Shown: positions 25,081 to 54,210, counted from the first letter of the stretch. The stretch is 56,100 bases of DNA from Promethearchaeota archaeon (GCA_013375485.1 JABXKB010000001.1:1-56100); one strand, 5' to 3'. A program made the numbers and translations. Notes: generated by a model from the sequence alone, not told the origin.

Positions 25081-25299
25081 CTACATTTCAAAAAGCCAAG
25101 GGCAATATAGCGCCCACTCTTTTTTATCGTTAAATATTAAAAATTGAACTTCATATTCATCATCGTCATGGTGCGCCGGTACTGCCAATACATCATATAC
25201 CTTTCCCACAGTTATTCCTTCCACTAACTGTTTTTCTTTACGCCTATTAAAGTTTCCTTTTGTTGCCATTATATAGTTTTTAACACATGTAACCTTCAT
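25081..25299 (-). CDS. hypothetical protein
   Basis: 72-aa ORF following MORN array A. Confidence 0.5.
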   Translation of the reverse strand: MKVTCVKNYIMATKGNFNRRKEKQLVEGITVGKVYDVLAVPAHHDDDEYEVQFLIFNDKKEWALYCPWLFEM

Positions 25300-25789
25300 C
25301 TAATATCTCCTCTATAGCTAAACTAGCTAAGTAATCTTGCCTTTTAGGATGACTCTCAAATTCTTCTTCAGTTAGGTATTTATCATCAACATACCATCGT
25401 TTACTGCCACCAGAATATTCAACTGCTGGCCCATCTAAGCGATGACGTTTACTCTTAACATACCAACATTTACTGCCATTAGCATACTCAATTGCTGGCC
25501 CGTCTAAGCGATGTAACTTACCTTCAACATACCAATATTTATCACCATTAGCATACTCAATTGCTGGCCCCTTAAGGCGATGACGTTTATCCTCAACATA
25601 CCAACATTTACTACTACTAGCGTACTCAATTGCTGGTCCATCTAAGCGATGTAACTTACCATTAACATACCACGCTTTATAACCATTAGCAAGCTCAATT
25701 GCTGGCCCATCTAAGCGATGTAGTTTCTTATTATAATCACGATAACTTAAAACACTACCGTCTAAGTAATAAAATTTATCTTTCTTCAT
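25280..25789 (-). CDS. MORN-like 23-aa repeat protein, 5 repeats
   Basis: 5 HRL(D/K)GPA cores; N-cap MKKDKFYYLDGS; tail LASLAIEEILDEGYMC. Confidence 0.8.
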   Translation of the reverse strand: MKKDKFYYLDGSVLSYRDYNKKLHRLDGPAIELANGYKAWYVNGKLHRLDGPAIEYASSSKCWYVEDKRHRLKGPAIEYANGDKYWYVEGKLHRLDGPAIEYANGSKCWYVKSKRHRLDGPAVEYSGGSKRWYVDDKYLTEEEFESHPKRQDYLASLAIEEILDEGYMC

Positions 25790-26348
25790 CCAATATCTCC
25801 TCTATGGCTAAACTGGCTAAATAATCTTGCCTTCTAGGATGACTCTCAAATTCTTCTTCAGTTAGGTATTTATCATCAACCCACCATTCTTTATGGCCAT
25901 TAGCGTATTCAACTGCTGGCCCATCTAAGCGATGTAACTTGCCTTTAATATACCAACTTTTATTGCCATTAGCATACTCAATTGCTGGCCCATCTAAGCG
26001 ATGATGTTTACCCTCAACATACCAATATTTATTACCACTAGCATACTCAACTGCTGGCCCATCTAAGCGATGTAACTCACCTTCAAAAAACCATTCTTTA
26101 TCGCCATTAGCCCACTCAATTGCTGGCCCATCTAAGCGATGTAACTTACCTTCAACACACCAACATTTATGACCATTAGCATACTCAATTGCTGGCCCAT
26201 CTAAGCGATGAATCTTATCTTCAATATACCAACATTTATGACCATTGGCATACTCAACAGCTGGCCCATCAAGGCGATGTAGTTTCTTCGTATCATCACA
26301 ATAATCTAAAATACTACCATCTAAGTAATAAAATTTATCTCTTTTCAC
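25776..26348 (-). CDS. MORN-like 23-aa repeat protein, 6 repeats
   Basis: 6 HRLDGPA cores; GTG start at 26348 inside upstream tail codons; tail LASLAIEEILDEER. Confidence 0.8.
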   Translation of the reverse strand: MKRDKFYYLDGSILDYCDDTKKLHRLDGPAVEYANGHKCWYIEDKIHRLDGPAIEYANGHKCWCVEGKLHRLDGPAIEWANGDKEWFFEGELHRLDGPAVEYASGNKYWYVEGKHHRLDGPAIEYANGNKSWYIKGKLHRLDGPAVEYANGHKEWWVDDKYLTEEEFESHPRRQDYLASLAIEEILDEER

Positions 26349-26700
26349 TTAGTATCTCCTCTATCGCCAAACTAGCTAAGTAGTCTTGCCTTTTAGGATG
26401 CGCTTCAAACTCTTCGTAAGTTAATTCTTCACCACCAACATACCACTCTTTATCACCATCAGCCCACTCAACAGCTGGCCCATCTAAGCGATGACGTTTA
26501 TCTTCAACATACCAACATTTATGACCATTGGCATACTCACAAGCTGGCCCATCAAGGCGATGTAACTTATCTTCAATCCACCACTCTTTACTGCCACTAG
26601 AATACTCAATTGCTGGCCCATCTAAGCGATGTAGTTTCTTATCCCAATCATAATAATCTAAAACACCACCGTCTGAGTAATAATATTTATTTTCTTTCAT
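26335..26700 (-). CDS. MORN-like 23-aa repeat protein, 3 repeats
   Basis: 3 HRLDGPA cores; tail LASLAIEEILSEKR. Confidence 0.8.
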   Translation of the reverse strand: MKENKYYYSDGGVLDYYDWDKKLHRLDGPAIEYSSGSKEWWIEDKLHRLDGPACEYANGHKCWYVEDKRHRLDGPAVEWADGDKEWYVGGEELTYEEFEAHPKRQDYLASLAIEEILSEKR

Positions 26701-26713
26701 TTAATGCGCTCCA

Positions 26714-26905
26714 TTAACTCGATAAAATTTCTGTTTCTATCGCTCTATTTATTAAATGTACTTTATACGCCTTATAGACCTCAATTGGAACCATACAATG
26801 TTTTCCTTCAACATTTACTCCTTCATATAAATGATCATATCCAAGCTCAATTAGCTTATTTAAGGACTTTAGACTGATTTTCTTAACAAAAACAACACGT
26901 TTCAT
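26714..26905 (-). CDS. hypothetical protein
   Basis: 63-aa ORF upstream of array A. Confidence 0.5.
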   Translation of the reverse strand: MKRVVFVKKISLKSLNKLIELGYDHLYEGVNVEGKHCMVPIEVYKAYKVHLINRAIETEILSS

Positions 26906-26998
26906 AAAAACCTCCTAAAATTTCCATTTTTACCAGTTTCCCCCTCTAATTATTAATGTAACACAGGTTGTTGAAAATGTCAAGCACTTTTTTAAAAA

Positions 26999-27277
26999 TT
27001 ATTCCTCTAATAGATATTTAAAATAATCCTCAAGTAAAACATACAGTTCACATGCTTTGTCTAGTTCTAATGTCTGGCAACCGATGTTTACAGTGTTGCC
27101 GCTTTCCTTTTTTATATCTTTTTTAAATTCAATAAAAATATGAAAAAGGCGTTCAGTATAACTACCATAAACCCACTGCCAGGTATCCTCCCAAAAGTAA
27201 AACATTCTTTGTTGGACTTCTATACAACCGTCTTTTAAAACAAGCCTAAATACACCATTACCCATTAAAACTTTCAT
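26999..27277 (-). CDS. hypothetical protein, paralogue of 45944..46222
   Basis: identical C-terminus LELDKACELYVLLEDYFKYLLEE; ~73 nt near-identical at the 3' end. Confidence 0.6.
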   Translation of the reverse strand: MKVLMGNGVFRLVLKDGCIEVQQRMFYFWEDTWQWVYGSYTERLFHIFIEFKKDIKKESGNTVNIGCQTLELDKACELYVLLEDYFKYLLEE

Positions 27278-27380
27278 GCTACCTCCTTTTTATATGTATT
27301 TAAACACTCTGCAACATATTCTAAATCAAAATCTATGTCTAATTCTCCTATTATATAATTATTTATATATTCGGTTGAGG

Positions 27381-27386
27381 TATAAT
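27381..27386 (+). promoter_or_regulatory. TATAAT -10-like box
   Basis: GAGGTATAATAC, 31 nt before ATG 27418 in divergent gap. Confidence 0.4.
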
Positions 27387-27417
27387 ACAGATAAATAACC
27401 TTTAAAAGGAGAGACGT

Positions 27418-27711
27418 ATGAGTCAGTCCGCTAAACAAAAGGTGCATAAAGTTACTATCCGTAACAAAGTACCAGGAACAATTTCTACCGGAGCTAATAC
27501 TGAAGTGTTATTAGACGGTAAAGTATTAAAAGCAGTCAACTTCGCTAAGATAGAGATCAAGGCTAGTAAAGCAGCTAAACTAACCCTAGAGATGTTTGTA
27601 GATGCCGATGAGGTAGAGATAGACACACCCATTAAATGTACGAGTTATAGGCCCTTGAAAAGAATTGTGAATTGGGTAATAGGTAAATATGAGTCGTATA
27701 TAACCACATAG
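27418..27711 (+). CDS. hypothetical protein
   Basis: 97 aa; SD AAAGGAGAG before ATG 27418. Confidence 0.6.
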   Translation: MSQSAKQKVHKVTIRNKVPGTISTGANTEVLLDGKVLKAVNFAKIEIKASKAAKLTLEMFVDADEVEIDTPIKCTSYRPLKRIVNWVIGKYESYITT

Positions 27712-27712
27712 T

Positions 27713-27743
27713 GACACTGCTTCGAGTTAACTCAAATCAATGG
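27713..27743 (+). promoter_or_regulatory. plus-strand variant of the GACACYGCT box plus TTAACTCAAAYCAAT motif
   Basis: GACACTGCTTCG (27713-27724) 1 nt after stop, then TTAACTCAAATCAATGG; compare minus-sense ATAACTCAAACCAATTCGAC at 43587-43606. Confidence 0.4.
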
Positions 27744-27848
27744 CTTTAAGTTAAATGGTTGTTTTTATTATTAAATATTAAACTACAAACATACACAATA
27801 TTTACTTTCTTTCACGCTTATTGTAAAAAACGGTGAAATATAAAATTT

Positions 27849-27874
27849 TTGATAACCTAATAACCTGGTATAAT
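27849..27874 (+). promoter_or_regulatory. sigma70-like promoter candidate
   Basis: TTGATA - 14 nt - TGGTATAAT; spacing is short, so -35 assignment is doubtful. Confidence 0.35.
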
Positions 27875-27891
27875 TAAAGTGTATACTTTTA

Positions 27892-28641
27892 ATGCTTATT
27901 ATGGATGGTTATATGTCAAAAATAAATCAGTCAAATATTGAACTTTTAAATAAAAATTTAGACGCTTTGATGGAAGCTTTATCTAAAGTTAATCCAAAAT
28001 ATGTTGGAAAAATCATACGCCGTAAGGGAAACAACCCAGAAGATCAAGCGGCCACAAAAAAACGGAAAGAGCAAGCTGCTGAAGCAAAGCGCCTTGAAAG
28101 CATAATTGATAAGGGCCCCACTCTTAATGCTAAAAACTTGCGCAACATGGATAGAGCCAATGCTCAAAAAAAAGCTGAAGCCAAGAGAAAGCTTCGAGGT
28201 AGTCTTAAAAAGTTTAAGGAAAGTTTAAAAGATTTAAATGAAAATTTAGAGAAAATGGCAGATGATGTTGGTAGGCAGTTTAGTAACAATAGTGTCGCTA
28301 GAAAAATGCGTGACGAATATCTTCCATTTAAACATGGAAGTCATATTAAAATAAATAAAGCTGTAACAAACCCTGAAACTGGCAAAACGCATGGTTACCA
28401 TGTTACTGAAACTATGGCAAATGGTACAACAGTAAAGCATCCAAATGTAAATTACTATACAATGGATTCAGCTATGAGTGGTGGTCGTTTAAGAATGACT
28501 GGCGAAAAACCTCATAGAAAATATAATCTTCATCATGAAGCAAAAGTTCATGTTGGAGAAATGACTTACCCTAATGGTAAAAAGAAATTGCATTATAGAC
28601 TTGATCCACATGGTGACCATCACACAAAGGCCACGGGTTAA
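27892..28641 (+). CDS. hypothetical protein (basic/coiled-coil N-half)
   Basis: 249-aa ORF; true start may be ATG 27913 (MSKINQ). Confidence 0.6.
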   Translation: MLIMDGYMSKINQSNIELLNKNLDALMEALSKVNPKYVGKIIRRKGNNPEDQAATKKRKEQAAEAKRLESIIDKGPTLNAKNLRNMDRANAQKKAEAKRKLRGSLKKFKESLKDLNENLEKMADDVGRQFSNNSVARKMRDEYLPFKHGSHIKINKAVTNPETGKTHGYHVTETMANGTTVKHPNVNYYTMDSAMSGGRLRMTGEKPHRKYNLHHEAKVHVGEMTYPNGKKKLHYRLDPHGDHHTKATG

Positions 28642-33489: not shown

Positions 33490-34323
33490 CTATTTTTTAG
33501 CTGCTCGGTTTAAAACGTGTCTTGGAGTAATCCACATAAAGTTTTTTATATCAGTATTGATTTTTTCTATAATAGGTTCGCGTGAGAAACCATTGTGTTT
33601 CCACAATAAATCGTCATCGTCTTTCTTGTTTTCTGGTAATGGCTCTGCAAGTAATGGACACCCTGAAAACTTTTTATATTCGGTGATACAATCAAACCAT
33701 CCACATTTTCTTTGTGGCTTGATTACTGTTTTTTCTATTAAATCTTTATCACAGCCTATAGTTTTTATAACCGCATCAATGGCATTATATTTAGGTGCCG
33801 TTACTCTTGATAACCATAGATTGTTATTTATAGCAACCTTATAATCTTTATATTCCATTTTTAAGCGTTTAGAGGTCATATGCTCTACGTCTATTACTAT
33901 ATCGTTAATGGCATTAAAAAGACTCATTATTCTTGGAAATTCATCCCTAAAAAACCCAGATGCATTATGTTGCATAATAATTCCATCGTATAACAGGAGT
34001 CTATCATGGCATGCTTGAAACATAGCAAAAGCAGCAGAAGCAGCAAATCTCGCTACACAAGTAAACTTAATTTTAGATGACTTCATTATTCCTATAATTC
34101 TAGCCATAGCAAATACACTTCCACCAGGACTATCTATATAAACTATAAGCCTATCTTTATCATATGTCATAACTTTTCTGGTGAAACTTTCTACTAATTG
34201 TTCCGTAAAAACATCTGTCACGGCAAAAAAATTATTGTTTTCTAATTTTACATTTACATCTTTATTGTTGGCAAATGCACCAAAATTAATTAAAATTAAA
34301 AATAACACTAAAACCCTATACAT
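33490..34323 (-). CDS. secreted ClpP-fold protease-like protein (paralogue 3)
   Basis: signal peptide MYRVLVLFLILINFGAFA; IVYIDSPGGSV; ARFAASAAFAMF; IIMQHNAS. Confidence 0.6.
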   Translation of the reverse strand: MYRVLVLFLILINFGAFANNKDVNVKLENNNFFAVTDVFTEQLVESFTRKVMTYDKDRLIVYIDSPGGSVFAMARIIGIMKSSKIKFTCVARFAASAAFAMFQACHDRLLLYDGIIMQHNASGFFRDEFPRIMSLFNAINDIVIDVEHMTSKRLKMEYKDYKVAINNNLWLSRVTAPKYNAIDAVIKTIGCDKDLIEKTVIKPQRKCGWFDCITEYKKFSGCPLLAEPLPENKKDDDDLLWKHNGFSREPIIEKINTDIKNFMWITPRHVLNRAAKK

Positions 34324-34648: not shown

Positions 34649-35380
34649 TTATTTTTTATAAGTTCGTTTTTTAGTTGGTGCTTTTTTCTTAGTTGGTGCT
34701 TTTTTCTTAGCTGGTGCTTTTTTCTTAGCTTTCTTTTTACTTTTAATATTTTTAACCGCTTCTTCTAATGTTTCCGCTTTAACATGTTCACCGCGATGAT
34801 TTTTAGCTTTTATAATTTCATATAGACTTGCAGCGTTTAAAGCAGGAACACCGACATCGTCTATTATTCCAAACTTTTTAGCCTCTTCAGCACTTAAATA
34901 AATGTCTTGGTTATCATTGTTCTTTATTATTTGTCTCATGCCATCATAACCATCTTTTATGCAACAATTTTTTGCTAATAAACCAATCCACATTTTGTTG
35001 AGTCTTTGTAGTTCTTTAGATGTATTTTTAATCTCCCTAACATTTCCTAATGCACCTGCCGACAATTCGTGTATCATTATTCTACTGCTTTTTGAGCAAA
35101 ATCTCATGTCTCCGTGCGATAATAGTATGGCGCCAGCAGACATAGCTTTCCCCACACAAACAGTTATTTTAGGATTTGGGGTTTCATCCATGGTATCTAT
35201 CATTTTAGCCATACCATCGACATTACCACCATATGAATCTATGTAAATTACAATTGGTTGATTAGGGCACTCTTTGGTTTTACTCCGCATTTGCAATCTA
35301 AATTTGTGTGATGCTTTTTCATCAAACTCATAAACCCATATTTCTTCGCCATAATCACGCGCATCAAAACGTTCGCCCAT
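34649..35380 (-). CDS. ClpP-fold serine protease with lysine-rich KKAPxK tail (paralogue 2)
   Basis: VIYIDSYGGNVDG; GKAMSAGAILL; IMIHELS; LSAEEAKKFGIIDD; tail KKAPAKKKAPTKKKAPTKK. Confidence 0.7.
   Translation of the reverse strand: MGERFDARDYGEEIWVYEFDEKASHKFRLQMRSKTKECPNQPIVIYIDSYGGNVDGMAKMIDTMDETPNPKITVCVGKAMSAGAILLSHGDMRFCSKSSRIMIHELSAGALGNVREIKNTSKELQRLNKMWIGLLAKNCCIKDGYDGMRQIIKNNDNQDIYLSAEEAKKFGIIDDVGVPALNAASLYEIIKAKNHRGEHVKAETLEEAVKNIKSKKKAKKKAPAKKKAPTKKKAPTKKRTYKK
34671..34724. repeat. 3 x 18-nt tandem repeat encoding KKAP(A/T)K
   Basis: ttag(t/c)tggtgcttttttc x3. Confidence 0.8.
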
Positions 35381-39427: not shown

Positions 39428-39658
39428 TTATTGTAATATTTTGTCAATCTCTTTTTCTATTTCTTTATTTAATATAATTTTAGCTATTTTATAGGCTTGT
39501 TTGAGGGTGCAAGTTGTCACTCTATGTACCTTGTTACTTTTTAATGGACACTTGCTACTACACCCAAAATGGACACAAATAGCTCGAGCTGCAGTAGAAG
39601 ACACCCTTCCTTTATTTTCAATAACATCTTGCAATAAAGTATATTCATCGTTAGTCAT
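39428..39658 (-). CDS. Cys-containing small protein, paralogue of 22549..22788
   Basis: trimmed to ATG 39658 (MTNDEYTLL) after AAGAGG. Confidence 0.5.
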   Translation of the reverse strand: MTNDEYTLLQDVIENKGRVSSTAARAICVHFGCSSKCPLKSNKVHRVTTCTLKQAYKIAKIILNKEIEKEIDKILQ

Positions 39659-40061
39659 ATAATACCTCTTTTTCAAATGCCTCATTGCGATAAGCTTCAA
39701 ACTTTTTATAAGTTAAACACTCACCTTCAATATACCAACTTTTACTACCATCAGCAAACTCAACCGCTGGTCCATCTAAGCGATGTAACTTACCATTAAC
39801 ATACCATCGTTTACTGCCACTAGTATACTCAATTGCTGGTCCATCTAAGCGATGTAACTTACCATTAACATACCATCGTTTACTGCCACTAGAATACTCA
39901 ACCGCTGGTCCATCTAAGCGATGTAACTTACCTTCAACATACCATTCCCTATGACCATTGGCATACTCAACAGCTGGCCCATCTAAGCGATGTAGTTCCT
40001 TATCCCAATCATCATAATCTAAAATACTACCACCTAAGTAATAAAATTTATCTCTTTTCAC
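39651..40061 (-). CDS. MORN-like repeat protein, 4 repeats, array-closing tail
   Basis: 4 HRLDGPA cores; tail LTYKKFEAYRNEAFEKEVLYD. Confidence 0.8.
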   Translation of the reverse strand: MKRDKFYYLGGSILDYDDWDKELHRLDGPAVEYANGHREWYVEGKLHRLDGPAVEYSSGSKRWYVNGKLHRLDGPAIEYTSGSKRWYVNGKLHRLDGPAVEFADGSKSWYIEGECLTYKKFEAYRNEAFEKEVLYD

Positions 40062-40479
40062 CTAGTATCTCCTCTATAGCTAAACTAGCTAAGTAATCTT
40101 GCCTTTTAGGATGCGCTTCAAATTGTTCTTCAGTTAAACGTTTACCCTCAACATACCATTCTTTATCGCCATTAGCGTACTCAATCGCTGGCCCATCAAG
40201 GCGATGACATTTACCCTCAACATACCAACTTTTACTACCCTCAACATACTCAATTGCTGGTCCATCTAAGCGATGACGTTTACCCTTAACATACCATCGT
40301 TTACTGCCACTAGAATACTCAATTGCTGGTCCATCTAAGCGATGACGTTTATCTTCAATCCACCACTCTTTACTGCCATTAGCGTACTCAATTGCTGGCC
40401 CATCTAAGCGATGTAAGATTTTATCCCAACCATAATAATCTAAAATACTACCATCTAAGTAATAAAATTTATCTTTCAT
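40048..40479 (-). CDS. MORN-like repeat protein, 4 repeats
   Basis: 4 HRLDGPA cores; tail LASLAIEEILGEKR. Confidence 0.8.
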   Translation of the reverse strand: MKDKFYYLDGSILDYYGWDKILHRLDGPAIEYANGSKEWWIEDKRHRLDGPAIEYSSGSKRWYVKGKRHRLDGPAIEYVEGSKSWYVEGKCHRLDGPAIEYANGDKEWYVEGKRLTEEQFEAHPKRQDYLASLAIEEILGEKR

Positions 40480-40897
40480 TCAATATTTCCTCTATGGCTA
40501 AACTAGCTAAGTAGTCTTGCCTTTTAGGATGCGCTTCGAATTGTTCTTCAGTTAATAATTTACCATCAACCCACCATTCTTTATGGCCACTAGCATACTC
40601 AACTGCTAGCTCATCTAAGCGATGTAACTTACCTTCAAAAAACCACTTTTTACTACCATCAGCATACTCACAAGCTGGCCCATCTAAGCGATGTAACTTA
40701 CCTTCAAAAAACCACTTTTTACTACCATCAGCATACTCAATTGCCGGCCCATCTAAGCGATGACGTTTATCTTCAACATACCACTCTTTATCACCATTGG
40801 CAAACTCAGCTGCTGGTCCATCTAAGCGATGTAGTTTCTTATCCCAATCATAATAATCTAAAATACTGCCATCTAAGTAATAAAATTTATCTTTCAT
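40469..40897 (-). CDS. MORN-like repeat protein, 4 repeats
   Basis: 4 HRLD cores (last HRLDELA); tail LASLAIEEILNER. Confidence 0.8.
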   Translation of the reverse strand: MKDKFYYLDGSILDYYDWDKKLHRLDGPAAEFANGDKEWYVEDKRHRLDGPAIEYADGSKKWFFEGKLHRLDGPACEYADGSKKWFFEGKLHRLDELAVEYASGHKEWWVDGKLLTEEQFEAHPKRQDYLASLAIEEILNER

Positions 40898-41456
40898 TCA
40901 ATATTTCCTCTATAGCTAAACTAGCTAAGTAATCTTGTCTTTTAGGATGTGTTTCAAATTGTTCTTCAGTTAAATGTTTACCATCAACCCACCAATATTT
41001 ATCACCATTGGCATACTCAACAGCTGGCCCATCTAAGCTATGCAACTTACCTTCAAAAACCCATTCTTTACTGCCATTAGCATACTCAACAGCTGGTCCA
41101 TCTAAGCGATGCAACTTACCTTCAAAAAACCATTCTTTATCGCCATTAGCGTACTCAATTGCTGGTCCATCTAAGCGATGAAACTTACCTTCAAAAAACC
41201 ATTCTTTATCGCCATCAGCCCACTCAATTGCTGGCCCGTCTAAGCGATGTAACTTACCTTCAACATACCAATATTTATCACCATTAGCATACTCAATTGC
41301 TGGCCCATCTAAGCGATGACGTTTATCCTCAATCCACCACTCTTTATTACCATCAGCATACTCAATTGCTGGTCCATCAAGGCGATGTAGTTTCTTCGTA
41401 TCATCATAATAATCTAAAATACTACCGTCTAAGTAATAAAATTTATTTTTCTTCAC
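40887..41456 (-). CDS. MORN-like repeat protein, 6 repeats
   Basis: 6 cores (last LHSLDGPA); tail LASLAIEEILNER. Confidence 0.8.
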   Translation of the reverse strand: MKKNKFYYLDGSILDYYDDTKKLHRLDGPAIEYADGNKEWWIEDKRHRLDGPAIEYANGDKYWYVEGKLHRLDGPAIEWADGDKEWFFEGKFHRLDGPAIEYANGDKEWFFEGKLHRLDGPAVEYANGSKEWVFEGKLHSLDGPAVEYANGDKYWWVDGKHLTEEQFETHPKRQDYLASLAIEEILNER

Positions 41457-42573: not shown

Positions 42574-42575
42574 AA

Positions 42576-42720
42576 TTAAAAGGACAGGCGCTGCGAAGCC
42601 ACCTGTCCCGTATCGCAGTCGGAGATTACTTGTTTACCGTCAGGCACAAGCTGAACTCTCCGTAAGTTCTAAGGGGTGGCGCCCATTACAAGCGCCTTGG
42701 GGGTATGTAGGTATTTAATA
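42576..42720 (-). ncRNA. candidate structured non-coding RNA / leader ending in an intrinsic terminator
   Basis: GC-rich, no credible ORF; stems GGCGC/GCGCC (42678-82/42692-96), CGGAGA/TCTCCG (42620-25/42657-62) enclosing CTTGT/ACAAG; terminator GGACAGG/CCTGTCC (42582-88/42602-08) + U-run on minus strand. Confidence 0.45.
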
Positions 42721-42885
42721 CTATAATTCTGCAAAATCATCCCAGTTAGGATTATTATAATAATCAACTACTTGTTTGCGGGTTATCACGTTAGTATTGA
42801 TTAAGTGTTGTATCTCTGATGCGTCTAATTCATCAAAATTAATATCTTCATATATCTCAGTAAATATTGCTTTCATCTTACCCAT
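42721..42885 (-). CDS. small acidic protein (54 aa)
   Basis: SD GGAGGA before ATG 42885; below ORF-track cutoff. Confidence 0.4.
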   Translation of the reverse strand: MGKMKAIFTEIYEDINFDELDASEIQHLINTNVITRKQVVDYYNNPNWDDFAEL

Positions 42886-42893: not shown

Positions 42894-43298
42894 CTATTCA
42901 AAAAAAGATAAATCGGGAAAATTACAGTTATAACAACCATTTTCTAATCCACAATCACACTTTACTATTACATTTTTCTCAAATACCTCACTACGATAAT
43001 TTTCAAACTCTTCGTAAGTTAATTCTTCACCATCAATCCACCATTCTTTATGGCTACTAGCGCACTCAATTGCTGGTCCATCTAAACGATGCAACTTACC
43101 TTCAACATACCATTCCCTATAACCATTAGCGTACTCAATTGCTGGCCCATCTAAGCGATGACGTTTACCTTTAACATACCACGCTTTACAACTGTCAGCA
43201 TACTCAATTGCTGGTTCATCTAAGCGATGTAACTTCTTATTGCGATTATAATAATCTAAAACACTACCATCTAAGTAATAATATTTATTTTTCTTCAT
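42894..43298 (-). CDS. MORN-like repeat protein, 3 repeats, with Cys-rich C-terminal extension
   Basis: 3 cores; tail LTYEEFENYRSEVFEKNVIVKCDCGLENGCYNCNF. Confidence 0.8.
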   Translation of the reverse strand: MKKNKYYYLDGSVLDYYNRNKKLHRLDEPAIEYADSCKAWYVKGKRHRLDGPAIEYANGYREWYVEGKLHRLDGPAIECASSHKEWWIDGEELTYEEFENYRSEVFEKNVIVKCDCGLENGCYNCNFPDLSFFE

Positions 43299-43560: not shown

Positions 43561-43586
43561 CTTACCTCCCATTATATATTTAACAG

Positions 43587-43597: not shown

Positions 43598-43609
43598 TGA
43601 GTTATAAGC

Positions 43610-43632
43610 GGGGCGAATTACTCGCCCCTTTT
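43610..43632. terminator. GC-rich hairpin (orientation ambiguous)
   Basis: GGGGCGA-ATTAC-TCGCCCC; the T-run is on the plus strand although the neighbouring genes are minus. Confidence 0.4.
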
Positions 43633-43677
43633 CGAGACAGGTTGAGGGTTTGCCTTTATCCACCCACAATTTTACGC

Positions 43678-43893
43678 TTAGCGATCGGCTAACTCATATT
43701 TAGATGGAGAACATACTACTACTCCATGTGGGCTCCATCCCAAGTATATTCCATAAAACTTTTCCAACTGAAACAATATTCGTCCATTTTCTTTACGGTT
43801 TTTAACTCTATAAAGCTCAGGGTGTCTATTTACTAAATATTCAAATGCTTTAAGTTTTCGCCTATTGCGCGCAATTGTTTCTTCTCTAGTCAT
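43678..43893 (-). CDS. hypothetical protein
   Basis: 71-aa ORF, ATGA overlap upstream. Confidence 0.55.
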   Translation of the reverse strand: MTREETIARNRRKLKAFEYLVNRHPELYRVKNRKENGRILFQLEKFYGIYLGWSPHGVVVCSPSKYELADR

Positions 43894-44174
43894 AATACCT
43901 CCTTTTCTAGAATATCACTTACATACTTTTCATATGCTTTATCCCATGCGTCTTTACATTCATCTGTATAGTACTCAAGCGGTACGAATCTCCATGTTTC
44001 ATCGCCGGGATACATTTCTTGTAGCTCTTCAATTTTCTCATCTGTTAAATCTTCAACGATAGTATTGGATGGTAAGTCTTCAACCACATACCAATCATTA
44101 TCCAAGTCTTTAACCATTATAGGCGCAACATGTTCATCGAGATCAATTTCTAATACTAAATACTTTCTTTTCAT
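43890..44174 (-). CDS. acidic hypothetical protein
   Basis: 94 aa; SD AAGGGGG; tail KYVSDILEKEVL. Confidence 0.6.
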   Translation of the reverse strand: MKRKYLVLEIDLDEHVAPIMVKDLDNDWYVVEDLPSNTIVEDLTDEKIEELQEMYPGDETWRFVPLEYYTDECKDAWDKAYEKYVSDILEKEVL

Positions 44175-44208
44175 ATTAACCCCCTTATTGCGTTGTTGTT
44201 ATATATAC

Positions 44209-44246
44209 ATCGAATCGGTTGGGGTGAATTGTGGCGTAGCGGTGTC
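44209..44246 (-). promoter_or_regulatory. second copy of the 38-nt box (contains motif copy 10)
   Basis: identical to 42536..42573; core at 44210-44220, 36 nt before ATG 44174. Confidence 0.6.
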
Positions 44247-44265
44247 GGCCAGTGAAATAGAGGTA

Positions 44266-44469
44266 TTATTCTCGAGGATATTTTCTCCAAAAATCAATTT
44301 CTTTATAGAATCTTATTTTTTGAAGATCGGGGTTAGTAGTGTCTCGTTTAATGGGAATAGGTGCGCCTAATTTATTTAGTCTATCGCTATAATTGTGTGC
44401 AAACCACATGATAAAAATAAACATTCCAATCCCGCATCCAATGCTCACTAACATTATTGTCCAATCCAT
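44266..44469 (-). CDS. small membrane protein
   Basis: N-terminal TM IMLVSIGCGIGMFIFIMWF. Confidence 0.5.
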   Translation of the reverse strand: MDWTIMLVSIGCGIGMFIFIMWFAHNYSDRLNKLGAPIPIKRDTTNPDLQKIRFYKEIDFWRKYPRE

Positions 44470-44470
44470 A

Positions 44471-44689
44471 CTATTCCTCTTTTTTAGGTGGTTTATATTT
44501 GGGACAATAATCTGAATGTTTGCCCCCTGATGCTCCAGCTTTTATAGCTGCGTCTAATCCACATTCACATTTTTTATTTGAAGATTCTGAAATAATTTTT
44601 TCGATATAACCATGCGCGGCATCATTATCATCAATGTGTCCCCAACTTGGGTCATTATTGTGATTATAATAAAAACTAGGGTAAGCCAT
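44471..44689 (-). CDS. hypothetical protein, possibly leaderless
   Basis: no SD; minus-sense TTGTATAAT-TAATAT-ATG places a -10 box 6 nt from the start codon. Confidence 0.5.
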   Translation of the reverse strand: MAYPSFYYNHNNDPSWGHIDDNDAAHGYIEKIISESSNKKCECGLDAAIKAGASGGKHSDYCPKYKPPKKEE

Positions 44690-48750: not shown

Positions 48751-49040
48751 TTCTCCTCCTTTAATATGTTATTGATTTCTTCACTTGCCTTTGATTCATA
48801 AAGCTCATATTCAAATTTTTCCCATAATTTGCATTCTTCACAGTCACAATTATCGTCGTGACTTTCATGCCACATTTCAAATTCATCACGCAATTCTTCG
48901 TCTTCTGATTCGTCATACCCCTTAAATCCATATAAAGCTAATTCATATAATTCTCTTTGAGAATAGCAATAAAAAGAATTTGCTTGATGTGTGGCTAATA
49001 ACTCTATAACTTTATCTCTTGTTTCATCACTTACCTTCAT
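48747..49040 (-). CDS. acidic hypothetical protein
   Basis: 97 aa; tail EEINNILKEEK. Confidence 0.55.
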   Translation of the reverse strand: MKVSDETRDKVIELLATHQANSFYCYSQRELYELALYGFKGYDESEDEELRDEFEMWHESHDDNCDCEECKLWEKFEYELYESKASEEINNILKEEK

Positions 49041-49041
49041 A

Positions 49042-49344
49042 TTATTTTCCTCCTAATAATTCTTTTTCTAATTCTTCATCCACATATTCATTAAAAGCCA
49101 ATTCTTGACATTTAATACAATCATTGGAACACTTTCTATAATTATCATCAATGCAATCAAGTTTTTTACCATTGCTAACAATTTGTAGTTCTAACCATTT
49201 ACCATTATCTTCTCTAGCTAATAAATACATATCGGCTTTGTTCTGAGATCCCATTGAAAAATCGAATACTATAACTTTCATGGTTTTAAAGTTAAAATAG
49301 CATTTATTTCCTGTACATGTTTTACATCTATTTTTATTTTTCAT
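49042..49344 (-). CDS. Cys-rich hypothetical protein
   Basis: 100 aa; tail NEYVDEELEKELLGGK. Confidence 0.55.
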   Translation of the reverse strand: MKNKNRCKTCTGNKCYFNFKTMKVIVFDFSMGSQNKADMYLLAREDNGKWLELQIVSNGKKLDCIDDNYRKCSNDCIKCQELAFNEYVDEELEKELLGGK

Positions 49345-49679
49345 AGCACAGTCCTCTCAAATAATTCATGTTGTATATCTTTTATCATATTAGGGTCAAG
49401 TTCCATTTCTTTGCGGCGACATTTAATTATAACTATGTTTCCCACAAACCTCCATGCATATCGATTACGGTGTTTATCTAATGAGATCCATTGTTGACAA
49501 GTAGACCACGTCCATTCGTTTTTGTTAGTTTTATTAGTTGCTTCGTTGAATAATCTAAGTAGAAATTCAAGTTCAAATGTAGTAAAAGACTTTAAATCTT
49601 TTAAGCTATAACGATATGTGTTGGCTATATATTGCTTTGCTATTTTTTTTAACAATCTTATTTTCTTAATTCTGTCCAT
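49341..49679 (-). CDS. hypothetical protein (FELEFL family, paralogue of 55291..55548)
   Basis: TTFELEFLLRLFNEATNKTNKNEWT.STCQQW vs TKFELEFLTKMYENGGDSNKTNFT.KACQHY. Confidence 0.55.
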   Translation of the reverse strand: MDRIKKIRLLKKIAKQYIANTYRYSLKDLKSFTTFELEFLLRLFNEATNKTNKNEWTWSTCQQWISLDKHRNRYAWRFVGNIVIIKCRRKEMELDPNMIKDIQHELFERTVL

Positions 49680-50082
49680 CTAATACATTCCTCTCAAATG
49701 CTTCATTGCGATAAGCTTCAAACTCTTTATAAGTTAAACACTTACCTTCAATATACCAACTTTTACTACCATCAGCAAACTCAACCGCTGGTCCATCTAA
49801 GCGATGACGTTTACCCTTAACATACCAACATTTACAACTGTCAGCATACTCAATTGCTGGTCCATCTAAGCGATGTAACTTACCATTAACATACCATCGT
49901 TTACTGCCACTAGAATACTCAACAGCTGGCCCATCTAAGCGATGTAACTTATCTTCAATATACCAACATTTATGACCATTGGCATACTCAATTGCTGGCC
50001 CCTTAAGGCGATGTAGCTTCTTATTGCAATTATAATAATCTAAAATACTACCGTCTGAGTAATAAAATTTATTTTTCTTCAC
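49666..50082 (-). CDS. MORN-like repeat protein, 4 repeats, array-closing tail
   Basis: 4 cores; tail LTYKEFEAYRNEAFERNVLDGQN. Confidence 0.8.
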   Translation of the reverse strand: MKKNKFYYSDGSILDYYNCNKKLHRLKGPAIEYANGHKCWYIEDKLHRLDGPAVEYSSGSKRWYVNGKLHRLDGPAIEYADSCKCWYVKGKRHRLDGPAVEFADGSKSWYIEGKCLTYKEFEAYRNEAFERNVLDGQN

Positions 50083-50503
50083 TTAGTATCTCCTCTATAG
50101 CTAAACTAGCTAAGTAGTCTAACCGCTTAGGGTGATTCTCAAATTCTTCTTCAGTTAAATGTTTACCATTAATATACCATCGTTTACTGCCACTAACATA
50201 CTCACAAGCTGGCCCATCTAAGCGATGTAACTTATCGTCAATAAACCAATATTTACTGCCATTAGCAAACTCAACCGCTGGCCCATCAAGGCGATGCAAC
50301 TTACCTTCAACATACCATTCCCTATGACCATTAGCATACTCAATTGCTGGCCCATCTAAGCGATGACGTTTACCCTCAACATACCACCATTTATAACCAT
50401 TGGCATACTCAACAGCTGGCCCATCAAGGCGATGTAGTTTCTTCGTATCATCATAATAATTTAAAATACTACCGTCTAAGTAATAAAATTTATTTTTCTT
50501 CAC
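50069..50503 (-). CDS. MORN-like repeat protein, 4 repeats
   Basis: 4 cores; tail LASLAIEEILSEEK. Confidence 0.8.
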   Translation of the reverse strand: MKKNKFYYLDGSILNYYDDTKKLHRLDGPAVEYANGYKWWYVEGKRHRLDGPAIEYANGHREWYVEGKLHRLDGPAVEFANGSKYWFIDDKLHRLDGPACEYVSGSKRWYINGKHLTEEEFENHPKRLDYLASLAIEEILSEEK

Positions 50504-50852
50504 TTAGTATCTCCTCTATAGCTAAACTAGCTAAGTAATCTTGCCTTTTAGGATGCACTTCAAATTCTTCTTCAGTTAAATGTTTACCATTAATACACCA
50601 ATATTTATCACCATCGGCGCACTCAATTGCCGGCCCATCTAAGCGATGTAACTTATCTTCAACATACCACTCTTTATCACCATCAGCCCACTCAACAGCT
50701 GGCCCATCAAGGCGATGACGTTTACCCTCAACATACCAATATTTATCACCATCAGCAAACTCAACCGCTGGCCCATCTAAACGATGTAGTTCCTTATTGC
50801 GATTATAATAATCTAAAATACTACCGTCTGAGTAATAATATTTATTTCCCAT
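50490..50852 (-). CDS. MORN-like repeat protein, 3 repeats
   Basis: 3 cores; tail LASLAIEEILSEEK. Confidence 0.8.
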   Translation of the reverse strand: MGNKYYYSDGSILDYYNRNKELHRLDGPAVEFADGDKYWYVEGKRHRLDGPAVEWADGDKEWYVEDKLHRLDGPAIECADGDKYWCINGKHLTEEEFEVHPKRQDYLASLAIEEILSEEK

Positions 50853-51339
50853 CTAATAATTCCTCTATGGCTAAACTAGCCAAGTAATCTTTTCTTTTGG
50901 GGTGTGTTTCAAATTCTTTTTCAGTTAAATATTTACCATTAACATACCGCGCTTTATAACCATTAGCGTACTCAACTGCTGGCCCATCAAGGCGATGACG
51001 TTTACCCTCAACATACCAACATTTATCGCCATTAGCGCACTCAATCGCTGGCCCATCAAGACGATGACGTTTACCCTCAACATACCATTCCCTATGACCA
51101 TTGGCATACTCAACAGCTGGCCCATCTAAGCGATGACGTTTATCTTCAATAAACCAATATTTATTACCATTAGCGCACTCAATCGCTGGCCCATCAAGAC
51201 GATGACGTTTACCCTCAACATACCACGCTTTATAACCATTAGCGTACTCAATTGCTGGCCCCTTAAGGCGATGTAGCTTCTTATTGCAATCATAATAATC
51301 TAAAATACTACCATCTAAGTAATAAATTTTATCTTCCAT
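50842..51339 (-). CDS. MORN-like repeat protein, 5 repeats
   Basis: 5 cores; tail LASLAIEELLDGK. Confidence 0.8.
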   Translation of the reverse strand: MEDKIYYLDGSILDYYDCNKKLHRLKGPAIEYANGYKAWYVEGKRHRLDGPAIECANGNKYWFIEDKRHRLDGPAVEYANGHREWYVEGKRHRLDGPAIECANGDKCWYVEGKRHRLDGPAVEYANGYKARYVNGKYLTEKEFETHPKRKDYLASLAIEELLDGK

Positions 51340-51628
51340 CTAATACATTCCTCTCAAACAACTCAGTCTTAAAGCAATTTATGCCACCTATCTTAAAGCG
51401 CCTACCTATTGGGTTATTATCTTCTTTAATCATCAGCCAATCTATTTCAAGCGGATATCTTATGGTATAAACACCTTCGCGGTAACTATCTATCCTTCCA
51501 TCTACCACATTACAGATAGCCGCTAATATACGAGTAGGAATCTGCTTCAAAATACGCTCAGATATATAGTTACACGAGATTTCGTCTATATCATTTATAT
51601 TCGTTAATAAATCCCACGTTTTCTTCAT
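51329..51628 (-). CDS. hypothetical protein interrupting array C
   Basis: no MORN repeats; tail FKTELFERNVLDGR. Confidence 0.55.
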   Translation of the reverse strand: MKKTWDLLTNINDIDEISCNYISERILKQIPTRILAAICNVVDGRIDSYREGVYTIRYPLEIDWLMIKEDNNPIGRRFKIGGINCFKTELFERNVLDGR

Positions 51629-52029
51629 AGCACATTCCTTTCAAACAATTCATTACGATAAGCTTCAAACCTTTCGTAAGTTAAACGCTTACCATTAATA
51701 TACCAGCGCTTATTACCATTGGCCCATTCAATTGCTGGCCCATCTAAACGATGTAACTTACCCTCAACACACCATTCTTTATCGCCACTAGCATGCTCAA
51801 CTGCTGGCCCATCTAAGCGATGTAACTTACCTTTAACATACCATCGTTTACTGCCATTGGCATACTCAACAGCTGGCCCGTCTAAGCGATGTAGTTTATC
51901 TTCAATCCACCACTCTTTATCACCATCAACGTACTCAGCTGCTGGCCCATCTAAACGATGTAACTTCTTATTGCGATTATAATAATCTAAAACACTACCG
52001 TCTGAGTAATAATATTTATCTTCCTTCAT
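51625..52029 (-). CDS. MORN-like repeat protein, 4 repeats, array-closing tail
   Basis: 4 cores; tail LTYERFEAYRNELFERNVL. Confidence 0.8.
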   Translation of the reverse strand: MKEDKYYYSDGSVLDYYNRNKKLHRLDGPAAEYVDGDKEWWIEDKLHRLDGPAVEYANGSKRWYVKGKLHRLDGPAVEHASGDKEWCVEGKLHRLDGPAIEWANGNKRWYINGKRLTYERFEAYRNELFERNVL

Positions 52030-52519
52030 CTAATAATTCCTCTATGGCTAAACTAGCTAAGTAGTCTTGCCTTTTAGGATGCGCTTCAAATTGTTTTTCA
52101 GTTAGGTATTTACCTTCAACATACCATTCCCTATGACCATTAGCATACTCAATTGCTGGCCCGTCTAAGCGATGCAACTTACCTTCAACATACCATTCCC
52201 TATCACCATTAGCATACTCAATTGCCGGCCCATCTAAGCGATGACGTTTATCTTCAGTCCGCCACTCTTTACAACCATTAGCCCACTCAATTGCTGGCCC
52301 ATCAAGACGATGTAACTTACCTTCAACATACCATTCCCTATGACCATTAGCATACTCAATTGCTGGCCCGTCTAAGCGATGACGTTTATCTTCAACATAC
52401 CACGCTTTACAACTGTCAGCATACTCAACTGCTGGCCCGTCTAAGCGATGTAGCTTCTTATTACAATCACAATAATCTAAAACACTACCATCTAAGTAAT
52501 AATAATATTTATTTTCCAT
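52016..52519 (-). CDS. MORN-like repeat protein, 5 repeats
   Basis: 5 cores; tail LASLAIEELLDEGR. Confidence 0.8.
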   Translation of the reverse strand: MENKYYYYLDGSVLDYCDCNKKLHRLDGPAVEYADSCKAWYVEDKRHRLDGPAIEYANGHREWYVEGKLHRLDGPAIEWANGCKEWRTEDKRHRLDGPAIEYANGDREWYVEGKLHRLDGPAIEYANGHREWYVEGKYLTEKQFEAHPKRQDYLASLAIEELLDEGR

Positions 52520-52802
52520 CTAATAATTCCTCTATAGCTAAACTAGCTAAATAATCATAACGCTTAGGATGTGTTTCAAATTCTTCTTCAGTTAAATGTT
52601 TACCATTAACATACCACGCCTTATAACCATTAGCGTACTCAACTGCTGGCCCATCTAAGCGATGACGTTTATCTTCAACATGCCACTCTTTATTACCATC
52701 AGCATACTCAACAGCTGGCCCATCTAAGCGATGTAACTTCTTGTTCCAATCACAATAATTTAAAATACTGCCGTCTAAGTAATAAAATTTATTTTTCTTC
52801 AC
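52509..52802 (-). CDS. MORN-like repeat protein, 2 repeats
   Basis: 2 cores; tail LASLAIEELLDGK. Confidence 0.8.
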   Translation of the reverse strand: MKKNKFYYLDGSILNYCDWNKKLHRLDGPAVEYADGNKEWHVEDKRHRLDGPAVEYANGYKAWYVNGKHLTEEEFETHPKRYDYLASLAIEELLDGK

Positions 52803-53226
52803 TTAGTATCTCCTCTATCGCCAAACTAGCTAAGTAGTCTTTTCTTTTGGGGTGGGCTTCAAATTCTTCTTCAGTTAAACGCTTACCATTAATAATCCAC
52901 CACCTTTTACCACCATCAGCAAACTCAACCGCTGGCCCATCAAGGCGATGACGTTTATCCTCAACATACCATTCCCTATGACCATTGGCAAACTCAACAG
53001 CTGGCCCGTCTAAGCGATGTAACTTACCATTAACATACCACTCTTTACAACCATTAGCCCACTCAATTGCTGGCCCATCAAGACGATGTAACTTACCTTC
53101 AACATGCCAATATTTACTGCCATTGGCATACTCAGCTGCTGGCCCATCTAAGCGATGTAGTTCCTTATCCCAATCATAATAATCTAAAATACTACCGTCT
53201 AAGTAATAATATTTATTTTCTTTCAT
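52789..53226 (-). CDS. MORN-like repeat protein, 4 repeats
   Basis: 4 cores; tail LASLAIEEILSEEK. Confidence 0.8.
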   Translation of the reverse strand: MKENKYYYLDGSILDYYDWDKELHRLDGPAAEYANGSKYWHVEGKLHRLDGPAIEWANGCKEWYVNGKLHRLDGPAVEFANGHREWYVEDKRHRLDGPAVEFADGGKRWWIINGKRLTEEEFEAHPKRKDYLASLAIEEILSEEK

Positions 53227-53509
53227 TTAATATCTCCTCTATAGCTAAACTAGCTAAATAATCATAACGCTTAGGATGTGTTTCAAATTCTTCTTCAGTT
53301 AGGTATTTACCATTAACCCACCATCGTTTACTACCACTAGAAAACTCAACCGCTGGTCCATCTAAGCGATGACGTTTACCCTTAACATACCACCATTTAC
53401 TGCCACTAGCATACTCAATTGCTGGCCCATCAAGGCGATGTAGTTTCTTCGTATCATCATAATAATTTAAAATACTACCGTCTAAGTAATAAAATTTATC
53501 TCTTTTCAC
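53213..53509 (-). CDS. MORN-like repeat protein, 2 repeats
   Basis: 2 cores; tail LASLAIEEILNERK. Confidence 0.8.
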   Translation of the reverse strand: MKRDKFYYLDGSILNYYDDTKKLHRLDGPAIEYASGSKWWYVKGKRHRLDGPAVEFSSGSKRWWVNGKYLTEEEFETHPKRYDYLASLAIEEILNERK

Positions 53510-53999
53510 TTAGTATCTCCTCTATAGCTAAACTAGCTAAGTAATCTTGCCTTTTAGGGTGCGCTTCAAATTGTTTTTCAGTTAGGTATTTACCTTCAAC
53601 ATACCATTCCCTATGACCATTAGCATACTCAATTGCTGGCCCGTCTAAGCGATGACGTTTATCTTCAACATACCACGCTTTACCACCATCAGCAAACTCA
53701 ACCGCTGGCCCATCAAGGCGATGCAACTTACCTTCAACATACCATTCCCTATGACCATTAGCATACTCAATTGCCGGCCCATCTAAGCGATGACATTTAC
53801 CCTTAACATACCATGCGTTATTACCATTAGCATACTCAATTGCTGGCCCATCTAAGCGATGAATCTTATCTTCAATATACCAATATTTACTGCCATTGGC
53901 ATACTCAACAGCTGGCCCATCAAGGCGATGTAACTTCTTGTTCCAATCTTTATAATCTAAAATACTACCATCTAAGTAATAAAATTTATTTTTCTTCAC
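53496..53999 (-). CDS. MORN-like repeat protein, 5 repeats
   Basis: 5 cores; tail LASLAIEEILSEKR. Confidence 0.8.
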   Translation of the reverse strand: MKKNKFYYLDGSILDYKDWNKKLHRLDGPAVEYANGSKYWYIEDKIHRLDGPAIEYANGNNAWYVKGKCHRLDGPAIEYANGHREWYVEGKLHRLDGPAVEFADGGKAWYVEDKRHRLDGPAIEYANGHREWYVEGKYLTEKQFEAHPKRQDYLASLAIEEILSEKR

Positions 54000-54210
54000 T
54001 TAGTATCTCCTCTATAGCTAAACTAGCTAAGTAATCATAACGCTTAGGATGCGCTTCAAATTCTTCTTCAGTTAAATGTTTACCATTAATATACCATCGT
54101 TTACTGCCACTAACATACTCAATTGCTGGCCCATCTAAGCGATGTAGTTTCTTATCCCAATCATAATAACCTAAAACACTACCATCTAAGTAACAATATT
54201 TATCTCCCAC
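53986..54210 (-). CDS. MORN-like repeat protein, 1 repeat (minimal member, first gene of array C)
   Basis: N-cap + single HRLDGPA core + tail LASLAIEEILSEEK in 74 aa. Confidence 0.75.
   Translation of the reverse strand: MGDKYCYLDGSVLGYYDWDKKLHRLDGPAIEYVSGSKRWYINGKHLTEEEFEAHPKRYDYLASLAIEEILSEEK

Follow-up and report, generated by a model that had tools for sequence, protein, structure and literature searches.

Multigene families of repeat proteins (ankyrin, MORN, FNIP, BTB and others) have been described in giant viruses (Shukla et al. 2018, PMC5753266); in such families, dozens of tandem repeat-protein paralogues occupy variable genome regions. A case from a jumbo phage has been reported too: in Bacillus phage G, a single small domain, a zinc ribbon, has undergone a large lineage-specific expansion to approximately 35 copies (Iyer et al. 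2021, PMC7824862). Among protein repeats, the closest described systems are the eukaryotic MORN repeat (PF02493; MORN1, MORN4, junctophilin and RSP1/RSP10), the MORN_2/YwqK repeat of bacterial immunity and antitoxin proteins (PF07661, COG2849) and the domain DUF6745 (PF20530). The fold class, the repeat multigene families of giant viruses and one single-domain jumbo-phage expansion are already known; no description of the family reported here, or of its phage arrays, was found in the literature. We describe 22 small genes in three tandem arrays, built from one 23-residue repeat, in a 56.1-kb metagenomic contig deposited as Promethearchaeota archaeon (GCA_013375485.1, JABXKB010000001.1:1-56100). 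The whole of this contig is referred to as the window. Our overall reading, held with slightly less than even confidence, is that these genes of a large tailed phage arose by a lineage-specific expansion and encode small soluble beta-hairpin repeat proteins that serve as diversified binders directed at the host. Taken alone, the anatomy, selection pattern and accessory status of the family are claims of which we are highly confident, and the binder function by itself is proposed tentatively.

The open reading frame (ORF) lists, together with a six-frame census by regular expression, place the 22 family ORFs on the minus strand. Array 1 contains three genes (25280-26700), array 2 eight (39651-43298) and array 3 eleven (49666-54210). 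A 387-nt spacer holding a small unrelated ORF and non-coding DNA sets 42894-43298 apart from the other seven genes of array 2, and array 3 is broken by the unrelated ORF 51329-51628. Over the whole window the census counted 83 instances of the core H[RS]L[DK][GE][PL]A, none of them beyond the 22 ORFs or on the plus strand in any of the six frames. Within each gene, successive cores always stand exactly 23 residues apart, and the genes hold from one unit (53986-54210) to six (25776-26348 and 40887-41456). The family totals 3032 codons, or approximately 9.1 kb (16% of 56.1 kb). Tandem Repeats Finder recovered the 69-nt period and its multiples, plus gene-length periods of 283-490 nt. This pattern is far beyond chance because it comprises dozens of in-register copies that are approximately 80% identical in nucleotides. 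All counts of a preliminary description of this DNA (22 ORFs, three arrays, 83 cores, one to six units, some 16% of the window) were thereby reproduced exactly. Its claims that a single 23-residue unit behind a common N-terminal cap (N-cap) builds all 22 genes, and that paralogues differ by whole units, are likewise supported.

The consensus of the 83 units is K-[LR]-H-R-L-D-G-P-A-[IV]-E-[YFWC]-[ASV]-[NDS]-G-x-[KR]-x-W-[YWF]-[VIF]-x-[GD]. H3, L5, A9 and E11 are invariant in 83 of 83 units; R4, P8 and W19 (82 units each), G7 (81) and D6 (80) are nearly so. Positions 2, 10, 12, 14, 16, 18, 20, 22 and 23 vary, and this composition upholds the earlier picture of a near-invariant scaffold with few variable positions (E-[YWFC]-[ASV]-[NDS]-G-x-[KR]-x-W). 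Each protein consists of an N-terminal cap hairpin (NKFYYLDGS), one to six units and a C-terminal helical cap. Two types of tail, both absent from the preliminary description, were found: a conserved helical tail, LTEEEFExHPKRQDYLASLAIEEIL, in 18 of the 22 genes, and an alternative tail, LTYxxFEAYRNE.FE[KR]NV[LI], in the four members standing last in a sub-array (39651, 42894, 49666 and 51625). A Cys-rich extension beyond the alternative tail, KCDCGLENGCYNCNFPDLSFFE, is unique to 42894-43298 and may be a small metal-binding knuckle. Neither a signal peptide nor a transmembrane segment is present in the family proteins. The isoelectric point (pI) lies at 4.75-7.0 in 17 of 22 members. DNA mimicry, which the acidic pI suggested, was rejected: net charge spans -14 to +5 and the acidity is not family-wide.

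The genome type follows from the translation signals and from the larger genes of the window, which has a G+C content of 33%. A Shine-Dalgarno sequence of GAGG-, GGAG- or AAGG-type lies no more than about 15 nt upstream of the start in 22 of 22 members, nine of which start with GTG, and adjoining members have overlaps of 11 or 14 nt. The tail of one gene encodes the Shine-Dalgarno and overlapping start of the next, as ATAGAGGAGATACTAA-GTG in the common tail and as TTTGAGAGGAATGTATTAG-ATG at the ELFERNVL junction; in array 3 the ELFERNVLDGR stretch of the unrelated ORF 51329-51628 does the same for the member that follows it. The arrays therefore appear to be head-to-tail minus-strand operons with translational coupling. 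Since these are bacterial translation signals, the genome is that of a phage and not of a eukaryotic giant virus. An ATP-dependent DNA ligase gene matches phrog_114 at 6e-95 in PHROGs, and in tblastn it comes closest to SPO1-like Bacillus phages, with approximately 34% identity. Other genes assigned to phage families with Pfam and PHROGs encode a phage ATPase, a thymidylate synthase, a DUF2201 metallopeptidase-like protein, a metallophosphatase and three ClpP-like proteases. The window holds no capsid, terminase or tail gene, so membership in the tailed-phage class (Caudoviricetes) is something we infer. The lineage is probably one of large or jumbo phages; the syntenic relative described below measures 176 kb. 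Megablast against 50,697 phage records gave no match, and tRNA and Rfam scans of the window returned nothing.

All 22 ORFs are intact, with no stop or frameshift, though copies differ by approximately 21% in nucleotides. The ratio of nonsynonymous to synonymous substitution (dN/dS) pooled over all unit pairs is 0.41; in 44 paralogue pairs of equal unit number it is 0.28-0.76 (median 0.45) at a synonymous divergence (dS) of 0.2-0.8. Neutral decay, with dN/dS near 1 and accumulating stops, was thus not seen, and the family is, judged from its sequences, maintained and not decaying, as had been proposed. Scaffold codons carry synonymous differences and almost no replacements. The proportions of synonymous (pS) and nonsynonymous (pN) differences are 0.51 and 0 at A9, 0.28 and 0 at E11, 0.36 and 0.02 at G7, and 0.62 and 0.05 at D6. 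At positions 2, 16 and 18, pN reaches 0.40, 0.46 and 0.60, against a pooled pS of 0.36, values that are compatible with diversifying selection without being proof of it. These codon comparisons show that selection holds the scaffold residues fixed and allows variation mainly at positions 2, 16 and 18, less at 10, 12, 14, 20 and 22.

A relative that lacks the arrays was identified in IMG/VR. IMGVR_UViG_3300005613_000005 (176,243 bp) is collinear with 20.5-56.0 kb of the window; its ligase is 63% identical and approximately 35 other proteins are 23-78% identical. No repeat core was found at the three corresponding sites, and tblastn of the relative with one member found nothing. Because this syntenic relative is without all three, the arrays are lineage-specific accessory insertions in a conserved backbone. 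For the same reason they are candidate determinants of host range or counter-defence.

Within the arrays, the units form a mosaic. The nearest neighbour of a unit lies in a non-adjacent gene for 72 of 83 units, and one unit type, KLHRLDGPAIEYANGHREWYVEG, occurs near-identically at different positions in four genes. Between two genes, the longest exact tract in common measures up to 95 nt (median 34 nt), and several such tracts are displaced by exactly 69 nt. A gene's nearest N-cap and nearest tail usually come from different genes, often in arrays 10-28 kb apart. Gene conversion and unequal homologous recombination among the units are the probable source of the mosaic. The arrays would have been inserted at three places in the conserved backbone and then have grown, and continued to be reshuffled, by these two processes among the 69-nt units. 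Because a tail encodes the next start, a crossover between units of neighbouring genes would duplicate or delete a whole working gene junction, and a single recombination event could thus alter both the number of units per gene and the number of genes. A diversity-generating retroelement was also considered and was rejected, as Pfam found no reverse transcriptase among the eight ORFs of at least 250 aa; the variable sites distinguish germ-line paralogues, not a template from a target.

The fold was predicted with AlphaFold2. The model of the four-unit member 40048-40479, built on seven sequences, is confident, with a predicted local distance difference test (pLDDT) score of 89.5 and a predicted template-modelling (pTM) score of 0.77. 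Its short strands recur in one arrangement from unit to unit, and the C-terminus holds helices at residues 117-121 and 124-141. When this model was searched against the PDB with Foldseek, ranks 1-17 were all MORN proteins, including Trypanosoma and Toxoplasma MORN1, MORN4, radial-spoke MORN proteins and junctophilin, with probabilities mostly of 0.9-1.0 (0.66-0.87 at ranks 15-17). The repeat part is accordingly modelled as a predicted elongated MORN-like beta-hairpin array. Sequence comparison gave another picture. Five members scanned against Pfam MORN (PF02493) and MORN_2 (PF07661) had no match at E <= 1; MORN is not among the Pfam families listed for 115 outside homologues, three of which touch MORN_2 (best at 2e-4). 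Single-protein and profile searches of PDB sequences yielded chance-level matches alone (OspA, T4 gp5 and an antibody chain). In Pfam, DUF6745 alone gave a significant match, in three of the five members (41.9, 40.2 and 29.4 bits, the cut-off being 27) and in 98 of the 115 outside homologues; no publication on this domain was found in the literature. The alignment is limited to profile positions 60-80 of 206, equivalent to one H-R-x-D-G-P-A hairpin that is matched repeatedly, so the members share a motif with DUF6745 and not the whole domain. "MORN-like" is therefore a term that the model supports for predicted fold and period, and not for membership of the MORN or MORN_2 sequence families. 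The preliminary description had likened the unit to MORN repeats and proposed profile searches and structure predictions: the resemblance stood in the predicted fold and fell in Pfam membership, and modelling succeeded for the four-unit member and was poor for a six-unit one.

Compared with eukaryotic MORN repeats, the phage family has the same period of 23 residues, a Gly- and aromatic-rich composition, the G-K-x-H element and, by prediction, the elongated beta-hairpin array. The MORN signature is Y-x-G-x-W-x-x-G-K-x-H-G-x-G. The phage unit reads K-x-H-R-x-D-G-P-A…E…G-x-K-x-W, having only G-K-x-H in common with it, and the phage members are small single-domain proteins with no Pfam MORN match, no profile match to PDB MORN chains and low template-modelling (TM) scores. 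MORN_2/YwqK proteins are likewise short beta-hairpin repeats in small proteins of the prokaryotic world, linked weakly in sequence to the phage repeat through the three outside homologues. In contrast to them, the unit signature and caps differ, none of the five window members scanned matches and no toxin partner was found nearby among the ORFs scanned. With DUF6745 the phage members have the motif in common, the remainder of that domain being absent.

The repeat itself is widespread. A word-indexed search was saturated, at more than 7,800 matches, and phmmer against 1.84 billion cluster representatives returned 27,074 proteins at E <= 0.001 (14,270 at E <= 1e-10), some of them repeat proteins of up to 1,927 residues. 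Foldseek against BFVD gave query-normalised TM-scores of up to 0.73, with matches in uncultured Caudovirales, Agrobacterium phage Atu_ph07, Celeribacter phage P12053L and the giant viruses Harvfovirus, Hyperionvirus, Powai lake megavirus and Mimivirus (R871). Atu_ph07 accounts for at least nine BFVD matches and six tblastn places; tblastn of the phage database gave weak matches to Atu_ph07, P12053L and three huge uncultured phages. In IMG/VR, 33 loci encode relatives, several as dense arrays of 15-21 genes in contigs of 120-390 kb (Table 1). These have N-caps and tails of their own, with the same architecture and a variable unit number, and their flanks hold no non-family gene in common with the window. 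A 3.8-kb JGI contig carries four tandem members with the cap and tail of the window type and overlaps of approximately 11 nt, adjoined by unrelated genes; the JGI metagenomes yielded no relative above 65% amino-acid identity. The N-cap and C-tail patterns were not found in the 185,579 GTDB species genomes scanned. Elsewhere the repeat is fused to DUF7666, DUF3310 and MazG. Six long outside homologues scanned with Pfam consist mostly of further repeats, one being an LRV/HEAT fusion, and in a protein of a 551-kb contig (P0120) the repeat stands behind what looks like an F-box-like N-terminus. Viral contigs of approximately 216 kb (L018-L030) have a variant core, H-R-x-N-D-L-P-A, and also encode a dynamin-family GTPase.

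Against this background, the earlier statement that expansions of this kind are not a described phage feature was too strong, given the approximately 35 zinc ribbons of phage G (PMC7824862), the multiple copies in Atu_ph07 and the IMG/VR arrays. The phage G domain has an unrelated fold, and the passages on it describe no variable internal repeat number or mosaic unit exchange. Atu_ph07 (490 kb) and P12053L are cultured phages carrying the same repeat in proteins annotated as hypothetical. Identity is approximately 45% or lower, and, unlike in the window, the copies do not form a single dense array in the region inspected; the Atu_ph07 genome paper makes no mention of the repeat proteins. The H-R-x-D-G-P-A repeat is also present, according to BFVD, in Mimivirus R871 and in Megavirus and Klosneuvirus-like proteins. 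The family differs from the repeat families of giant viruses in its bacterial translation signals, its phage backbone and its tiny genes (74-190 aa) in translationally coupled operons.

Twenty-two intact paralogues on 16% of 56 kb are unusual for a capsid-limited phage, and devoting this share of such a genome to paralogues implies a strong selective benefit. The products would be diversified cytoplasmic protein-binding modules that bind host proteins and neutralise or redirect them, the most plausible targets being components of defence or toxin systems. Specificity would be set by the variable residues and the length of the binding surface by the unit number. We propose modular host-directed binders because the members are small soluble proteins with a conserved scaffold and hypervariable positions, unit number varies, the arrays are dispensable in a relative, and separate expansions and fusions occur. 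Counter-defence or anti-toxin activity would be their most plausible use. Several points weigh against this proposal. No homologue of known function backs a binding or anti-defence role, and PADLOC, PHROGs and NCBIfam gave nothing informative for members. At three positions pN exceeds pS, which relaxed constraint could explain instead of diversifying selection, and per-site pS is noisy and distorted by gene conversion. TM-scores to MORN structures are just 0.3-0.4, limiting trust in the match, a value that differing curvature of elongated arrays could explain. The model of the six-unit member, from a gapped alignment of the 22 paralogues, has a pLDDT of 55.7 and was kept out of the fold search for that reason. 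Gene order and number within each array rest on a single metagenomic assembly.

Five other explanations were weighed, all of them less well supported than host-directed binders because of the points counted against each. YwqK, the immunity partner of the YwqJ toxin, provides the first: immunity genes commonly lie in polymorphic arrays, and each paralogue might neutralise a different polymorphic toxin from the host or from competing bacteria or phages. The MORN-like predicted fold and the three outside homologues touching MORN_2 are in keeping with immunity of this type. We nevertheless consider it unlikely, since none of the five scanned window members matches MORN_2 and the N-cap/C-tail signature was not found in the GTDB genomes scanned. 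The immunity context raised in the preliminary description also found no backing: Pfam, PHROGs and PADLOC, applied to part of the window ORFs, detected no toxin or defence match among the array neighbours, no toxin-like gene adjoins the arrays, and PADLOC returned no match for the members.

The MORN repeats of junctophilins and PIP kinases are membrane-associated, membrane or lipid binding has been proposed for some eukaryotic MORN proteins, and the MORN-like predicted fold would also suit proteins that anchor phage or host complexes at the inner membrane. The acidity of 17 of the 22 members (charge down to -14) is unfavourable for binding to bacterial membranes, which are anionic, neither a transmembrane nor an amphipathic N-terminal segment is apparent, and a generic tether needs no 22 diversified paralogues; we regard membrane or lipid binding as quite improbable. 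Slightly less credible again is a functionless runaway duplication, a tolerated 'accordion' remnant of a recombination-prone repeat. Repeats do favour unequal recombination, and one relative dispenses with the arrays. Phage genomes are, however, under packaging constraint, all 22 ORFs remain intact at a dS of 0.2-0.8 with dN/dS below 1 in 44 of 44 pairs, change in scaffold codons is almost purely synonymous, and Shine-Dalgarno and overlapping start are kept at every junction.

A place in the virion, as decoration, fibre or internal proteins with unit number acting as spacer or ruler, is very improbable. Elongated beta-sheet repeats with a helical, oligomerisation-like tail do recall some fibre and decoration modules, and a weak match to the T4 gp5 beta-helix region was obtained (E 0.03). 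That match is not significant, the syntenic relative does without all three arrays, the adjoining genes are uncharacterised small ORFs or belong to DNA or nucleotide metabolism, and no structural PHROG matches. Least probable of all is an assembly artefact of collapsed or chimeric reads from fewer repeat genes, for although the contig is metagenomic and an independent Logan assembly appears to stop where array 1 starts, copies differ by approximately 21% with no exact common tract beyond 95 nt, each junction is in frame with the correct overlap, and comparable arrays occur in many independent contigs. The Logan contig in question (SRR26538807, L034; 24,974 bp), a short-read assembly of the same phage, appears to cover approximately 1-25 kb of the window; its end at array 1 would look like a repeat-induced contig break.

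Returning to host-directed binders, a wider and decidedly speculative version is that large phages, and giant viruses in parallel, may carry an undescribed hypervariable binder repertoire in which 69-nt units, exchanged by gene conversion, create surfaces against defence systems or toxins. If true, this repertoire would be a viral germ-line counterpart of cassette shuffling as in lamprey variable lymphocyte receptors and antigenic-variation loci. The repeat is very common and is arrayed in unrelated large viral contigs, yet its sole sequence label is a domain of unknown function. Should the members be modular binders, their scaffold would be usable as a small designable repeat protein.

Table 1. 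Positions of family members, intervening features, corresponding sites in the 176-kb relative and dense outside arrays. L numbers designate outside loci; DUF6745 values are from Pfam.
Feature	Location	Strand	Remarks
Array 1, first gene, 3 units, 121 aa	26335..26700	-	GGAG Shine-Dalgarno upstream
Array 1 member, 6 units, 190 aa, GTG start	25776..26348	-	DUF6745 at 8.8e-11
Array 1, last gene, 5 units, 169 aa, modified tail end (…EEILDEGYMC)	25280..25789	-	
Array 2 member, 3 units, 134 aa, alternative tail and Cys-rich C-terminus (KCDCGLENGCYNC)	42894..43298	-	
Unrelated ORF, 54 aa, between two array 2 members	42721..42885	-	
Terminator-like hairpin, GGGACAGG…CCUGUCC then UUUU	42578..42609	-	Centroid fold; putative role
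Array 2, opens contiguous seven-gene block, 3 units, 120 aa	42144..42506	-	
Array 2 member, 3 units, 119 aa	41795..42154	-	
Array 2 member, 3 units, 120 aa	41443..41805	-	DUF6745 at 6.1e-7
Array 2 member, 6 units, 189 aa, GTG start	40887..41456	-	DUF6745 at 3e-10; AlphaFold2 model poor
Array 2 member, 4 units, 142 aa, fourth core degenerate (HRLDELA)	40469..40897	-	
Array 2 member, 4 units, 143 aa, structure-modelled	40048..40479	-	AlphaFold2 pLDDT 89.5
Array 2, last gene, 4 units, 136 aa, alternative tail	39651..40061	-	
Array 3, first gene, 1 unit, 74 aa, GTG start	53986..54210	-	
Array 3 member, 5 units, 167 aa	53496..53999	-	95-nt exact tract common with 52016-52519
Array 3 member, 2 units, 98 aa	53213..53509	-	
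Array 3 member, 4 units, 145 aa	52789..53226	-	
Array 3 member, 2 units, 97 aa	52509..52802	-	
Array 3 member, 5 units, 167 aa	52016..52519	-	
Array 3 member, 4 units, 134 aa, alternative tail (…ELFERNVL), closes sub-array	51625..52029	-	
Unrelated ORF, 99 aa, interrupts array 3, C-terminus ELFERNVLDGR	51329..51628	-	
Array 3 member, 5 units, 165 aa	50842..51339	-	
Array 3 member, 3 units, 120 aa	50490..50852	-	
Array 3 member, 4 units, 144 aa	50069..50503	-	
Array 3, last gene, 4 units, 138 aa, alternative tail	49666..50082	-	
Array 1 site	window 23290-28638 vs L037 14352-19798		5.3 kb vs 5.4 kb
Array 2 site	window 39201-44471 vs L039 6508-9450		5.3 kb vs 2.9 kb
Array 3 site	window 49040-55618 vs L043 5659-7716		6.6 kb vs 2.1 kb
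L007, 19 family ORFs	9 kb of 204-kb contig		IMG/VR
L016 / L031, 21 family ORFs	contigs of 204 and 391 kb		IMG/VR
L004, 15 family ORFs	122-kb contig		IMG/VR; L006 is the same stretch in a near-identical 129-kb contig
L010, 16 family ORFs	129-kb contig of L006		IMG/VR; L011 is the same stretch of the 122-kb contig

Putative control elements were found upstream of the seven-gene block of array 2. A GC-rich spacer of approximately 210 nt (42507-42720) contains two hairpins in this 33% G+C genome, one of them the terminator-like hairpin of Table 1; comparison of the spacer with tRNA and Rfam models gave a chance-level match alone, and the folding z-score of the non-coding stretch 42574-42720 (minus strand) is just -1.9. 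An exact 38-nt direct repeat, GACACCGCTACGCCACAATTCACCCCAACCGATTCGAT, of which none is expected by chance, lies at 42536-42573 and 44209-44246 on the minus strand, each copy approximately 30-35 nt upstream of an ATG, that of gene 42144-42506 and that of gene 43890-44174, respectively. It is a candidate phage promoter or regulatory site, and its position next to the hairpin suggests that the two may mark the boundary of a transcription unit. No terminator-like site was found inside the arrays. A scan for sigma-70 promoters and terminators gave fewer sites than shuffled sequence and is uninformative.

Several small genes adjoin or resemble parts of the arrays. The unrelated small ORFs 49341-49679, 51329-51628, 54200-54529 and 54600-54842 end in ELFER[NT]VL like the members with the alternative tail, as does a 38-codon open frame ending near 54540, where no ORF was called. 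At 51329-51628 and 54200-54529 this stretch encodes the Shine-Dalgarno of the following member. The ORFs 54200-54529 and 54600-54842 are paralogous (43% identity), and further small paralogous pairs are 45944-46222/26999-27277 (53%), 31605-31871/31364-31663 (40%) and 3249-4010/4007-4723 (34%).

In a 239-kb viral contig with family members, an IMP dehydrogenase gene (L009, 15305-17491) carries an intein, with Hint and intein-splicing domains. Within the window, the three ClpP-like serine protease genes lie in 15 kb, at 20550-21365 (plus strand), 33490-34323 (minus) and 34649-35380 (minus). Two match Pfam CLP_protease, the third matches the PHROG head-maturation protease families most strongly, and all three have counterparts in the 176-kb relative.

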